Shown in pieces: positions 1 to 36,284 of a stretch of 37,200 bases of DNA. The DNA is from a virus (taxonomy: Duplodnaviria > Heunggongvirae > Uroviricota > Caudoviricetes). How positions within the stretch are numbered: position 1 is the first letter of the stretch; every line of letters begins with the position of its first letter. Both the position numbers and the translations under genes were made by a program. The stretch lies in the IMG/VR virus record IMGVR_UViG_2526164668_000026. One strand, 5' to 3'. The notes under the pieces are model-generated. The model did no database searches. It saw nothing but the letters and a program-made list of their open reading frames with translations, and was not told where the DNA came from.

Positions 1-1002
1 TTACCCTCTATTGTCAAAAGGATTCAATTCAACAGCAGCCTCTAAATGACCTGGAGCAAAATGCGCATAACGCATAGTCATTTTTATATCGCTATGCCCC
101 AGTATTTTTTGCAACACAAGAATATTTCCGCCCCGCATCATAAAATGACTGGCAAACGTGTGACGTAGCACATGAGTTAATTGCCCATCAGGAAGCTCGA
201 TCTTCGCTCTCTTAATTGCAGCGTCAAAAGCCTCATAACATGGTGAAAATAGCGCTCCTCGTTTTTTGGGAAGCATAGCCTGCAATTGAGGTGAAATCGG
301 TACAGTGCGGTTCTTCTTTCCTTTAGTTTTAACAAATGTGATTCGACCGGGCAGTACTTGAGATTGCTTTAATCCTTCTGCTTCACTCCACCGAGCACCA
401 GTCGCAAGCCCAATACGGACAACAACCCCCAAATCTTTATTCCGTGACTCATCACACGCAATCAGAAGGCGTTCAATCTCATCTACATACAGAAACGCCA
501 GTTCCTTTTCTTCCTCACGAAACTTGCGAATACCAGTCAGGGGGTTTTCACCAGACCACTCCCCAAGGCGCTTCAGTTCGGCAAAAACAGCATGTAGATA
601 TGACTGCTCGCGATTAACGGTTGCTTCACTAAGTTTTTTCTTCCCCTTGGGATTCCATTCTCCTGATAGCCTTCTTTCCCGATAAGTGGCAAACATATTT
701 TTGTCAAACTGAGAAGCAAATGGATCTCCCAGCCTGGAACAAATCGCCTCAAGTTTGACTTTGCGCTCTGCACCAGAGGACAAGGTTTTACCGTACATCT
801 CAAACCAACGAGCAATCAACTCAGAAAGACGAGGACCAGAACCATCTTGAAACTCGTCTCCAACTCTACTATTCATTAAACGGCGCTCATAAGAGAGCGC
901 CTCACTTTTTGTCGCAAACTGTTTACGAATGCGTTTTCCCGATGCCCCGTAGGGATAACATTCGCAAAGCCATTTACCTGATGGAATCTTACGAACCGAC
1001 AT
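1..1002 (-). CDS. int: Phage tyrosine integrase (P2/186-like)
   Basis: 333-aa ORF with C-terminal tyrosine-recombinase catalytic region (..ATGARWSE.., ..HVLRHTFASHF.., ..LGHSDIKMTMRYAH); sits at the prophage end downstream of the repressor operon. Confidence 0.9.
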   Translation of the reverse strand: MSVRKIPSGKWLCECYPYGASGKRIRKQFATKSEALSYERRLMNSRVGDEFQDGSGPRLSELIARWFEMYGKTLSSGAERKVKLEAICSRLGDPFASQFDKNMFATYRERRLSGEWNPKGKKKLSEATVNREQSYLHAVFAELKRLGEWSGENPLTGIRKFREEEKELAFLYVDEIERLLIACDESRNKDLGVVVRIGLATGARWSEAEGLKQSQVLPGRITFVKTKGKKNRTVPISPQLQAMLPKKRGALFSPCYEAFDAAIKRAKIELPDGQLTHVLRHTFASHFMMRGGNILVLQKILGHSDIKMTMRYAHFAPGHLEAAVELNPFDNRG

Positions 1003-1007
1003 TTTAG

Positions 1008-1355
1008 TTACTTATCACATAAATCAAATGCAGCCTTAGTGACATCCCCCAGACTCTTTTTTAACCCTGGGGCGGCATCATTATCTAGCCAAAATGGATT
1101 ATTGTTATCTAACGGTAACGCACCAAATGTTTTACCTTTTATTCGAGCCAAACCTGTAAGTGCATATAACTTATTATCGTCAAAATTCATCACATAAGGA
1201 TTACCATCAAGACACTGTAATTGAACCTCATCAGTATTAAATGGCCATACCCCATTGAAACTCTCACGTTCAATAGTTTTAAAAGGCATTGCGACGGCGG
1301 AAAAAGAAAACATAGATAAAAAAGTAACTAATAGTTGAACCTTTTTTACTTTCAT
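1008..1355 (-). CDS. Small secreted/periplasmic protein (signal peptide; resembles YebY/DUF2511-type proteins by recollection)
   Basis: 115-aa ORF with hydrophobic N-terminal signal-like segment (LLVTFLSMFSFSAVA), two Cys; lies between repressor operon and int on the same strand. Confidence 0.5.
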   Translation of the reverse strand: MKVKKVQLLVTFLSMFSFSAVAMPFKTIERESFNGVWPFNTDEVQLQCLDGNPYVMNFDDNKLYALTGLARIKGKTFGALPLDNNNPFWLDNDAAPGLKKSLGDVTKAAFDLCDK

Positions 1356-1384: not shown

Positions 1385-2035
1385 TTACAAATTAAAAAAC
1401 GCCCTAGAAATGACACCGCCTACCAAAACCCCTACGCAGATAAAGAATATTATTTCTTTTGGATAAAGTCGGATTAATTCTGAAGCACGAAGTCGGACCT
1501 CTGGTAAGGTCGAACTCTCTGTGTGGCTTGATGCCGATTGTTGCTCTAACCACGACAATGCAGACTGTAACTGAGAACGAGTAAGATCGTTTAAACGTCC
1601 TGTACCGAAATTGATATGGCAATACCGCAGAAGTTTTTGTCGAAGTCCACAGTCTTCACTGTTACGTAGTAATAAACTTACAAGAGCCTTACAGGCATCA
1701 TGATCTTTACATCGCTCAAGCATTGCATGCAGAAAACTCTCCGCTGTTTTATATTGATTTACTGTCATATCATCAATACCAGCTACACCAATCTCCGCAT
1801 GTACTTTTTGCCAAATAATAAACGCTTCAGTATTGCTAGCTTCTGCAATAGCAGCAACCAAGCTATTTAGCTCCTTACGCTGAGCCTTAAGCAAAGGGCG
1901 ATCGTCATCATCATTATTCGAAGGGATTGCGATATTGACAGTATGAGAACCATCATATCGCTCTATCTGAATATTCTTTTCGTGAAAATCACGCCCAGCA
2001 ACGCGATTGTTTGAACCGTTTGAGTTGACGGCCAT
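1385..2035 (-). CDS. Hypothetical membrane-anchored protein (C-terminal TM helix), lysogeny-operon cargo
   Basis: 216-aa ORF; C-terminal hydrophobic stretch IIFFICVGVLVGGVISRAFF; N-terminal NNRVAGRDF motif echoes the C-terminus of the upstream repressor; 13 bp downstream of the repressor stop on the same strand. Confidence 0.55.
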   Translation of the reverse strand: MAVNSNGSNNRVAGRDFHEKNIQIERYDGSHTVNIAIPSNNDDDDRPLLKAQRKELNSLVAAIAEASNTEAFIIWQKVHAEIGVAGIDDMTVNQYKTAESFLHAMLERCKDHDACKALVSLLLRNSEDCGLRQKLLRYCHINFGTGRLNDLTRSQLQSALSWLEQQSASSHTESSTLPEVRLRASELIRLYPKEIIFFICVGVLVGGVISRAFFNL

Positions 2036-34596: not shown

Positions 34597-34857
34597 ATGT
34601 TCCGTTGTCCGCTTTGTGGCGCATCTGCCCGTATCCGCACCAGTCGTCCGGAAAATGATTCAAACACCGTGCGGCAAAAGTATTACCAGTGTAACAACCT
34701 GGAATGCGGCGTATGCTTCTCAACACTGGAAGCTTTCCATAAATTCACATCGAAACACGCCTCCGGCGTTCACTCATCAGAAGGTATCCCGTGGCATGAG
34801 CTGCCAGCTTCACACAGGGGAAACAATCAGATGAGTTTGCCTTTACCTCAGAATTAA
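34597..34857 (+). CDS. ogr: Ogr/Delta-type zinc-finger late transcription activator
   Basis: MFRCPLCGASARIRTSR...YYQCNNLECG gives the C-x2-C...C-x4-C zinc-finger pattern; last phage gene, after D. Confidence 0.8.
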   Translation: MFRCPLCGASARIRTSRPENDSNTVRQKYYQCNNLECGVCFSTLEAFHKFTSKHASGVHSSEGIPWHELPASHRGNNQMSLPLPQN

Positions 34858-35046
34858 CAGGCAGAATTGCCGGAGTAACAAAAAAGCGATAGATTACGTG
34901 CGGGTGCCTTTCGGCTGATGGTCGGAGGGAATACCCGAAGGCCGGATGTGGAAAGGCCCCGGAAAACATTTCTGTTTAACCGAGGCCCTAACCCGTCAAC
35001 CTAGCAAGTGATAGGTTAGCGCCTCTCCAACAAAGGAGCAAGCGCT

Positions 35047-35187
35047 ATGTCGCAAAAATCGCTTACGGCCATCACGTTCTGCGTGACGGTAATCCTCATC
35101 ATCTGGATGCTGCACGGTTCGCTGTGTGAAATACGGATGAGCTTCTGGGGAGCGGAGTTTGCGGCGTTCTTACAGTGTAAGCAGTAA
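35047..35187 (+). CDS. Hok/Gef-family type I toxin (46 aa)
   Basis: MSQKSLTAITFCVTVILIIWMLHGSLCEIRMSFWGAEFAAFLQCKQ: one TM helix then the conserved SLCE..AAF..C motif; AAGGAG RBS; long structured leader upstream; terminator downstream. Confidence 0.7.
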   Translation: MSQKSLTAITFCVTVILIIWMLHGSLCEIRMSFWGAEFAAFLQCKQ

Positions 35188-35275
35188 GGAAACCGCGACG
35201 GGGAGGCAACTCCCCGTCAATCGGTTGCTAGGGTAAGGCCGATAAGGCACCCTATCTCATAGGCATGAATAACAA

Positions 35276-35308
35276 CCCCGCAGCGTAAAAACTGCGGGGT
35301 TTCTTTTT
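35276..35308 (+). terminator. Rho-independent terminator after the hok-like gene
   Basis: ccccgcag-cgtaaaaa-ctgcgggg followed by tttcttttt. Confidence 0.6.
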
Positions 35309-35376
35309 GGAACTCTCACTAGCTAGTGAGCCGTTAACTGCACATAATGCTCGCACAACAAATCAGTTAAAAGAGA

Positions 35377-35658
35377 TTACTCAGCATTCTCCTGCTTCCA
35401 TTGCCGGATCATTTCATCGGTAACATCACTTTCATAACATACCACGTCATACCCTCCAGTACGGCTATATGCACTGCGTCCACCACATCTACTACCATTC
35501 CTTGCATGATTATACGGACACGCACAATTGCCTGGATAAGATTCAATGGATTCTTTAATTATTTCTTTCTTGATCTGAGCATCTGACTTTCCTGTTGCTG
35601 CATACCCACTAAAAGATACCAAACAAAGGCAGATTGCCATTAATAAACCACATCGCAT
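35377..35658 (-). CDS. Hypothetical Cys-rich secreted protein
   Basis: ORF with signal-peptide-like N-terminus (MRCGLLMAICLCLVSFSGYA) and several Cys; start chosen at the internal Met of the longer ORF 35377..35772; weak RBS. Confidence 0.35.
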   Translation of the reverse strand: MRCGLLMAICLCLVSFSGYAATGKSDAQIKKEIIKESIESYPGNCACPYNHARNGSRCGGRSAYSRTGGYDVVCYESDVTDEMIRQWKQENAE

Positions 35659-36131
35659 ACCGATACACTCTATTACTAACCAATCATAGCCCACATCATA
35701 AAATCGAGATGAGGAGTACAACACCTTTAACAAGAAGGTGCCATCACGATAATATGCCGTGCAATTCATCAAAAAAAAGATCTATATCAAAGAGATAGAG
35801 TTATTATCAGTGCTGCAGACATCAGCATTCGAGGCAGCAGAAAGACAGTAAATCTAACGAATTTGTCTTTTTCTCAGGATGTTGTCAGATTAAAAAAGAT
35901 AGAGTAGCGCAGACACCTTTTGGTGGATGGTAGGAGGAAAAATGAAGTTGAGTGGGAAGATCCCAGAAAAAACTTTGGTTTAACCAAGGCCCTAGTTCAA
36001 TATGCGAAATGCAGATGAGTTGCAGGAGAGTTTTGCTTCACCCTTAGAGTTTAAACAGACGTGTACTATCATTATTTCTGCATATCGCCACACCATCGCC
36101 ACTTTACCGCCATTTAACAAAATACAAATAC

Positions 36132-36153
36132 AAAAAACCACCCGAAGGTGGTT
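36132..36153 (-). terminator. Rho-independent terminator of the glyW-cysT-leuZ tRNA operon
   Basis: On minus strand aaccacc-ttcg-ggtggtt followed by tttttt; about 45 bp downstream of leuZ. Confidence 0.6.
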
Positions 36154-36197
36154 TCACGACACTGCTTATTGCTTTGATTTTATTCTTATCTTTCCCA

Positions 36198-36284
36198 TGG
36201 TACCCGGAGCGGGACTTGAACCCGCACAGCGCGAACGCCGAGGGATTTTAAATCCCTTGTGTCTACCGATTCCACCATCCGGGC
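36198..36284 (-). tRNA. leuZ: tRNA-Leu (anticodon UAA)
   Basis: Reverse complement gives GCCCGGATGGTGGAATCGGTAGACACAAGGGATTTAAAATCCC...CCGGGTACCA, 87 nt with CCA end. Confidence 0.9.

Follow-up and report, generated by a model that had tools for sequence, protein, structure and literature searches.

A hok/sok-type locus and a decayed second hok copy in the right end of a P88-like prophage at leuZ

Considering that a Hok-family toxin gene and a second stretch of DNA resembling its leader lie about 1 kb apart at the end of a prophage, the question arises as to whether both belong to the phage, what the second copy consists of, and whether the first can be a working type I toxin-antitoxin (TA) module of the kind described for plasmid R1. 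The DNA in question (positions 34,858 to 36,131) forms the final 1.3 kb of the prophage contained in the virus record IMGVR_UViG_2526164668_000026, the whole stretch of which, at its full length of 37,200 nucleotides, is referred to here as the window. It lies between ogr, the gene of the late-gene activator, and the leuZ transfer RNA (tRNA) gene. The reading that is favoured in the current work, with a probability of about 0.85, is that the prophage carries between ogr and its right attachment site (attR) a complete hok/sok-type type I TA module, a moron (cargo gene) specifying a Cys-rich protein, and a dead hok locus (Table 1). An original prediction made from the letters of the sequence had proposed a Hok-family type I locus beside a degenerate paralogue at the end of a P2-like prophage, and this part of it stands; its proposals concerning the host junction, a second copy limited to the leader and an overlapping mok reading frame do not.

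The hok toxin gene and its leader

The 46-codon open reading frame (ORF) had been placed in the Hok/Gef family from its signature, and profile searches bear this out: the product scores 30.1 bits against Pfam HOK_GEF (cut-off 22), with residues 7-44 aligned to profile positions 5-42 of 42, and 82.8 bits against PHROG 251 (‘MokW-like host killing’). Its translation, MSQKSLTAITFCVTVILIIWMLHGSLCEIRMSFWGAEFAAFLQCKQ, has a hydrophobic helix at the N terminus and, after it, a short C-terminal part containing the conserved Cys (SLCEIR), and the corresponding RefSeq label is Hok/Gef family protein WP_000078920.1. Scores against the NCBIfam HokA model (35.8 bits, cut-off 89) and Hok model (23.6 bits, cut-off 73) are both below threshold, and the protein is therefore not an equivalog of HokA-E. 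The ratio of nonsynonymous to synonymous polymorphism (pN/pS) of the gene, calculated from 24 unique ORFs, is 0.07 at a pS of 0.12. A peptide identical at 45 of the 46 positions (72_1621, which differs by V15A) appears in Table S2 of a recent preprint among 45 homologs tested for toxicity, only three named sequences of which were non-toxic, 72_1621 not being one of them (10.1101/2025.08.07.668861).

The hok transcript is predicted to start near position 34902, at GGGTGCC, and both this motif and the preceding -10 element are kept in 52 unique homologous loci retrieved from IMG/VR. The RNA from 34902 to 35256 folds with a free energy of -163 kcal/mol (z = -8.0; none of 100 shuffles did as well), and the pairing of the 5’ tac element with the 3’ fbi element is present in both the minimum free energy and the centroid structures, its GGGTGCC and GGCACCC motifs being kept in homologs. 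The leader (34902-35057) matches the Rfam sok family RF01794 over the full model (positions 1-157) with 47.3 bits and E = 9e-9. This match and the fold of the mRNA agree with the long structured leader that had been noticed at 34883-35046, and a stem followed by a T run was found where a strong terminator had been read (35276-35308). At the DNA level, the segment 34881-35252 is 82-83% identical to the hok loci of Shiga toxin (Stx) phages.

The predicted Sok RNA, running on the opposite strand from approximately 35006 to 34950, would be about 57 nt long; in its predicted fold (z = -3.2), a G+C-rich stem-loop is preceded by a free 5’ tail and followed by UUUCC. The hexamers of its promoter, which constitute a weak match (three of six positions each), are kept in homologs, and their position agrees with that of the R1 Sok promoter (TTGCGC-17-TATCCT). 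Overall, homologs have kept the promoter, the tac/fbi pairing, the hairpin that hides the hok ribosome-binding site and also the terminator.

One short stretch of the leader (34991-35004) varies by insertions, deletions (indels) and substitutions among close alleles (IMG/VR loci L013-L132), with at least one compensatory change in the opposite hairpin arm (CCTA/TAGG vs CCTT/AAGG). It lies opposite the free 5’ tail of the predicted Sok and may set the specificity of the antitoxin.

By analogy with R1 hok/sok, a stable hok mRNA would be made constitutively and would remain inert through the pairing of its 5’ and 3’ ends, with the hok ribosome-binding site being additionally locked in its local hairpin, until slow 3’ trimming refolds the molecule to a translatable form. 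The short-lived Sok, made from a promoter overlapping the hok ribosome-binding site, would pair with the leader and cause destruction of the mRNA. Upon arrest of the Sok supply, by loss of the prophage or by a shut-off of transcription, Hok would be made and the inner membrane would be depolarised. The live module may serve in retention of the prophage; alternatively, it may aid lysis or exclude other phages, as has been reported for hokW-sokW of prophage Sp5 (PMC8621323).

The second copy and the prophage boundary

In a pairwise comparison, positions 34879-34990 align with positions 35891-35994, 79 of the 103 aligned bases being identical (about 70% when gaps are counted, which is the value given in the original prediction). 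The local score of this alignment is 55, compared with 18.2 for shuffled sequences (standard deviation 2.3, maximum 27), and it is the sole such match in the window on either strand. An nhmmer profile was made from 52 intact IMG/VR loci, which had been gathered by DNA pattern scans, and the window’s own hok copy. This profile recognises two segments of the second copy (Table 1). Segment A, which is homologous to positions 34874-34990 (approximately) of the first copy, contains a promoter with a 5-nt spacer deletion, the tac element, the leader and the stretch corresponding to the Sok terminator stem. Segment B corresponds to hok codons 23-46 and is recognised in the window with E = 4.6e-4 and in O157-type and related variants with about 6e-8; the case for it rests mostly on these variants, in which decay has gone less far, and on its being collinear with segment A. 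Both copies are thus aligned with hok/sok loci, the first by means of the Rfam sok model and the second by means of the nhmmer profile, as the original prediction had proposed to do.

The two segments are collinear and abut, profile positions 149-274 being absent between them, which amounts to 123 nt (34991-35113 of the first copy). This deletion has deprived the locus of the promoter and 5’ end of Sok, of the hok ribosome-binding site and ATG, and of codons 1-22, where the membrane helix is specified. What remains of the coding sequence reads SICEMQMS in the window and GSLCEIRRS in an O157-type variant, after which the 4-nt deletion shifts the frame. It had been stated that the second stretch is a copy of the leader followed by no hok-like ORF; no intact ORF is indeed present, but the copy is not a leader alone, as the decayed hok codons occupy 35995-36058. 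In addition, the promoter spacer measures 12 nt as against 17 in the live copy, GGGTGCC has become AGACACC, and no 3’ untranslated region is present. Neither the sense strand (z = -1.1) nor the antisense remnant (z = -0.4) folds significantly, and no match to Rfam was obtained for this copy even at E <= 10. Judged by its sequence, the second copy is a hok pseudogene (hereafter the relic) able to make neither toxin nor antitoxin, and the hok locus does adjoin a degenerate paralogue. Between prophage variants, among which few lineages were compared, the relic is 85-86% identical and the live hok, the cargo ORF and the sequence upstream of the cargo ORF are 93-97% identical; the relic is the fastest-diverging segment of the region and is under relaxed constraint. 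On this reading, it arose by the single 123-nt deletion and later decayed by point changes, the 5-nt deletion in the promoter spacer and the 4-nt frameshift, and it persists because of its position between the cargo gene and the arm of the phage attachment site (attP).

The relic was found in 652 of 5426 complete E. coli genomes, and it adjoins leuZ at all loci inspected, including prophages cut down by the insertion sequences (IS) IS30, IS1 or IS3. In prophages that share the attP arm, the same deletion junction is present wherever segment B passes the threshold, and no intact second copy was encountered among loci with this leuZ-type P arm, all of which carry the deleted form. Therefore, the deletion predates the approximately 14% divergence of the lineages. 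A blastn search in distant mode of phages and plasmids yielded no relatives of the relic except for two large E. coli entries of the plasmid collection that contain the same relic, and an 18-mer taken from the relic variant that is best preserved, when searched against 185,579 species genomes, retrieved only unrelated Bacteroidota and similar contigs. No annotation of the relic is present in any of the records examined.

With regard to this end of the prophage, it was also observed that IS elements insert here frequently: IS30 replaces gpD, ogr and hok in O157:H7 (L005, L010), IS1 and IS3 trim the prophage to the relic in two strains (L009, L012), and an element of the IS481 family lies within the stretch in O103:H2 and O121 strains (H19-H22). 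In a separate observation, two IMG/VR loci (L022 and L114) contain a hok-type leader (GGGTGCC ... GTTTAACCGAGGCCCTA) with no recognisable hok ORF downstream, possibly as additional cases of hok decay in other phages.

The window contains a P88-like (Xuanwuvirus, P2 family) prophage inserted in the 3’ half of the leuZ tRNA gene of E. coli. The late region of this prophage is of the P2 type, with a gpD that is 99% identical to that of phage P88, and the right end of the window consists of the host genes leuZ, cysT, glyW and pgsA. In strain A0 34/86, which harbours the same prophage (99.9% identity across the region described here), the junction beyond int, the integrase gene, contains a second leuZ 3’ half with its 3’ trailer and terminator, followed by yecA. 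The sequence at this int-proximal junction (attL; L006, approximately 1546-1666) and positions 36132-36252 of the window form an exact repeat of 121 bp. Identity with K-12 begins at 36132, where the K-12 annotation is 3’ETS-leuZ and leuZ, and K-12 possesses one copy of the att core and nothing of 34858-36131. Here, as expected for tRNA-type attachment sites in the P2 family, a direct repeat regenerates the 3’ part of the tRNA and the stretch is missing from a prophage-free genome. Therefore, 34858-36131 is wholly within the prophage and both hok copies are phage-borne.

This settles several points that had been raised from the sequence. The possibility that a prophage-free reference would hold all of 34858-36130 as ordinary host sequence did not materialise, as K-12 is without it; neither copy marks the junction of attR with the host, given that the att core lies beyond both; and the question of which copy is phage-borne, previously considered undecidable, can be answered. 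The idea that 35311-36131 belongs to the host as an islet, or is what remains of an older element located outside the prophage, was rejected, since the 121-bp repeat brackets the stretch and since all inspected genomes containing it have adjoining prophage genes or the remains of an IS-truncated prophage.

Just right of the relic, the word ATCGCCAC occurs twice and is kept among prophage variants. This pair in the P arm is complemented by one copy (TATCGCCACTTT) in the P’ arm beside int (L006, A0 34/86), all being in the same orientation, and these are candidate Int-binding sites. Two side observations concern the att core: lysogens carry two copies of the sponge RNA 3’ETS-leuZ, one supplied by the phage behind an intact leuZ and the displaced host copy beside yecA, and the A-run left of the terminator stem is A6 in the window and A7 in K-12 and attL.

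Table 1. Coordinates of the hok region, the att site and neighbouring prophage genes in the window
Feature	Position	Strand	Description
hok toxin gene	35047..35187	+	46 aa; Pfam HOK_GEF (PF01848), PHROG 251
Predicted hok promoter	34867..34895	+	-35 TTGCCG (34867-34872), 17-nt spacer, -10 TAGATT (34890-34895); read from sequence
Predicted full-length hok mRNA	34902..35309	+	5’ tac (34902-34916) pairs with 3’ fbi (35237-35252)
Two short leader ORFs in mok position	34918-35004; 34946-35011	+	28 codons; 21 codons
Predicted Sok antisense unit	34950..35041	-	-35 TTGCTC (35041-35036), 17-nt spacer, -10 TAACCT (35018-35013)
Hairpin hiding hok ribosome-binding site	35017..35047	+	GGAG 35035-35038 pairs with CUCC 35025-35028; -14.2 kcal/mol, z = -3.4
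hok intrinsic terminator	35274..35309	+	10-pair stem 35274-35301 with 7 G-C pairs, then T run
hok relic, segment A	35887..35995	+	profile 29-148; 33.5 bits, E = 8e-12
hok relic, segment B	35995..36058	+	profile 275-342; hok codons 23-46 (first copy 35114-35184), 4-nt frameshifting deletion
Candidate integrase arm-type sites	36084..36102	+	ATCGCCAC twice, starts 36084 and 36095, 11 nt apart
attR core	36132..36252	.	121 bp, equal to attL; leuZ terminator, 3’ETS-leuZ (36132-36197), leuZ 3’ half (36198-36252)
Cargo (moron) gene	35377..35658	-	93 aa from its ATG; predicted secreted, signal peptide, 4 Cys in mature part, motif GNCACPYNHARNGSRCGGRSAYSRTGG
ogr/delta late-gene activator	34597..34857	+	Pfam Ogr_Delta 52.4 bits; last conserved gene of P2-type late region
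Integrase gene	1-1002	-	Pfam Int_N and Phage_integrase; window begins at its stop codon
DUF2511 protein gene	1008-1355	-	PHROG 2950
216-aa protein gene	1385-2035	-	PHROG 5825, labelled function unknown
Repressor-like helix-turn-helix (HTH) gene	2051-2455	-

The mok frame and alternative readings

An overlapping mok frame had been expected in the leader on the basis of what is established for hok loci, and in this allele it is absent: the two short leader ORFs in the mok position terminate 42 and 35 nt short of the hok ATG, and the frame that runs open through the start of hok offers no ATG, GTG or TTG. Among 51 unique close alleles with a hok ORF, an overlapping frame of 70-87 codons is present in 25 and absent in 26, a difference that arises from small indels in the variable leader stretch. 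In the case of R1, translation of mok is needed at least up to the hok ribosome-binding site, and premature mok stops upstream of hok abolish toxicity (PMC9841398).

The absence of this frame is one of five points that weigh against the presence of a complete hok/sok-type module beside a dead locus, since by the R1 rule this allele would be silent and the live copy could be translationally weak or regulated in a manner unlike R1. The others are that the leader does not reach the RF01794 gathering score of 59; that a simple consensus promoter scan flags neither the hok nor the Sok promoter; that both transcripts are themselves predicted from the sequence; and that the significance of the relic’s segment B is low within the window, in a search space of 5.5 kb. 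The first of these points can be extended to the reading that the live hok is itself functionally silent and is decaying like the chromosomal hok loci of K-12, its mok being truncated before the hok ribosome-binding site. No start-codon-initiated frame reaches that site, and the abolition of R1 toxicity by early mok stops would apply here as well. This reading is nevertheless considered unlikely, given that the pN/pS of hok is 0.05 in alleles without the overlapping mok (16 unique ORFs) and 0.09 in those with it, indicative of strong purifying selection, that the promoter, the end pairing, the ribosome-binding-site hairpin and the terminator are conserved, and that the true relic nearby illustrates what decay looks like. 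As strong purifying selection is seen in both mok classes, it is concluded that Hok is expressed under some condition and that its translation is coupled in another way than in R1. It may tentatively be suggested that in this prophage clade the translation of Hok is independent of an overlapping mok frame, although we would not yet wager on it; coupling could then proceed via the short conserved leader ORF 34946-35011, which ends just upstream of the ribosome-binding-site hairpin, or alternatively this hairpin could be opened directly.

Two further readings would assign a present function to the relic. It could have been co-opted in the recombination site, extending the P arm of attP and offering binding sites there to accessory proteins (IHF, Cox/excisionase, Fis), given that its sole location is directly to the left of the P arm, that all loci with the arm have it, and that it survives in IS-reduced remnants holding just the relic, the arm and the core (L009, L012). 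Physical linkage alone, however, explains its constant position, and since the truncated remnants are immobile, retention of the relic there says nothing about a function in recombination. Moreover, the relic is the least conserved segment and the candidate Int sites, which are conserved, lie outside it; it lies to the left of the 121-bp core at a distance of 74-245 bp, and any crossover point within the core would be more remote still. A role in recombination is accordingly judged improbable. Even less credence is given to the relic being transcribed and acting as an RNA, for example by titrating Sok as a decoy or by regulating the cargo gene next to it: it is about 77% identical to the part of the hok leader complementary to the Sok 3’ stem-loop, and leftover ORFs cross it (35920-36018 and 35952-36047), yet its promoter spacer is shortened, its tac is mutated, it has no terminator, and it is without the segment that would pair with the free 5’ tail of Sok. 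The insignificant folds, the lack of any Rfam match and the high divergence reveal no sign of constraint either. A complete module accompanied by a dead hok locus therefore remains the favoured reading.

The cargo slot and relation to known hok loci

A small Cys-rich secreted-protein ORF on the minus strand had been noticed between the two copies, and it is present there (35377-35658, 93 aa). The protein matches PHROG 27544, whose label is function unknown, over its full length with 199 bits, has no Pfam or NCBIfam family, is labelled hypothetical in RefSeq, and is 96.5-97% identical among prophage variants. A Sclerostin match (E = 0.0095) was below the cut-off and was dismissed as Cys-rich noise. 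Both ogr and hok are common to the window and the free phages P88, Chuche, P884B11 and 500465-2 (94-96% identity), which then diverge, ogr being about 96% identical to that of P88 and Chuche, and the homology stops at the hok terminator (approximately 35310). Before attP and int, Chuche contains a com/mom-like methyltransferase and P88 another small gene. As the free phages diverge beyond this point, the stretch from the hok terminator to attP constitutes a variable cargo slot, which is filled in this lineage by the Cys-rich secreted protein and the relic, and the slot represents a hot spot for cargo genes among P88-like phages. Two accessory genes between int and the HTH gene (1008-2455) look like another cargo slot at the prophage’s left end. 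A hok locus with 94% identity was also observed in NZ_CP148288.1 (34,461 bp; H113), a record filed as an E. coli plasmid, the size of which suggests a circular P2-family phage genome and not a plasmid.

In comparison with R1 hok/sok (parB), the locus shares a small Hok/Gef membrane toxin with the SLCEIR core, 12 of 31 residues being identical to R1 Hok. It also shares a long leader, a sequestered hok ribosome-binding site and a predicted antisense promoter that overlaps this site, the predicted antisense RNA having a free 5’ tail and a terminator stem-loop. A further likeness is the tac/fbi closure, which has been described for the R1 hok mRNA (PMC9841398). Unlike R1 hok/sok, the locus resides on a prophage and not on a plasmid, its toxin has 46 and not 52 amino acids, its Rfam score is below gathering, and it has neither an AUG after the conserved GAGG, where R1 mok starts, nor an overlapping mok frame. 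Membership of PHROG 251 (‘MokW-like host killing’) is shared with other prophage hok loci, namely those of P88-like (Xuanwuvirus) and Stx-converting phages and hokW-sokW of Sakai prophage Sp5. HokW has 51 amino acids and is 44% identical to R1 Hok (PMC8621323), and the Stx-phage gene matched here has 46, so that these may be different loci; an identity of the present locus with hokW-sokW is not established.

A live copy with a dead one 1 kb away fits the pattern of hok islets and inactivated loci, and the chromosomal hok loci of K-12 were reportedly found by Pedersen and Gerdes in 1999 to be largely inactivated. It has been described that 10% of hok genes are located within 2 kb of another, apparently by local duplication, and that prophages show an enrichment of hok genes, degenerate coding sequences having been dropped from that catalogue (10.1101/2025.08.07.668861). 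Unlike the members of such islets, the dead copy described here is about 70-77% identical to the live one and thus not recently duplicated, an unrelated cargo gene stands between the two, one deletion has taken the toxin start and the antitoxin promoter together, and the deleted form is fixed in a whole phage lineage.

The live hok locus is already known in kind and largely in particular, its toxin being named in RefSeq and phage records and its peptide cluster being catalogued. What is new is the unannotated hok pseudogene fixed in a phage lineage, the exact prophage boundary with a 121-bp core duplicating 3’ETS-leuZ, and the missing mok frame, none of which (relic, exact att core or lack of mok) is annotated in the records examined. 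Beyond annotation the significance is small. Nonetheless, the live hok with its dead neighbour supplies an internal control when selection on type I loci is studied, and mok-independent translation of Hok, if true, would depart from the R1 rule that mok must be translated as far as the hok ribosome-binding site.

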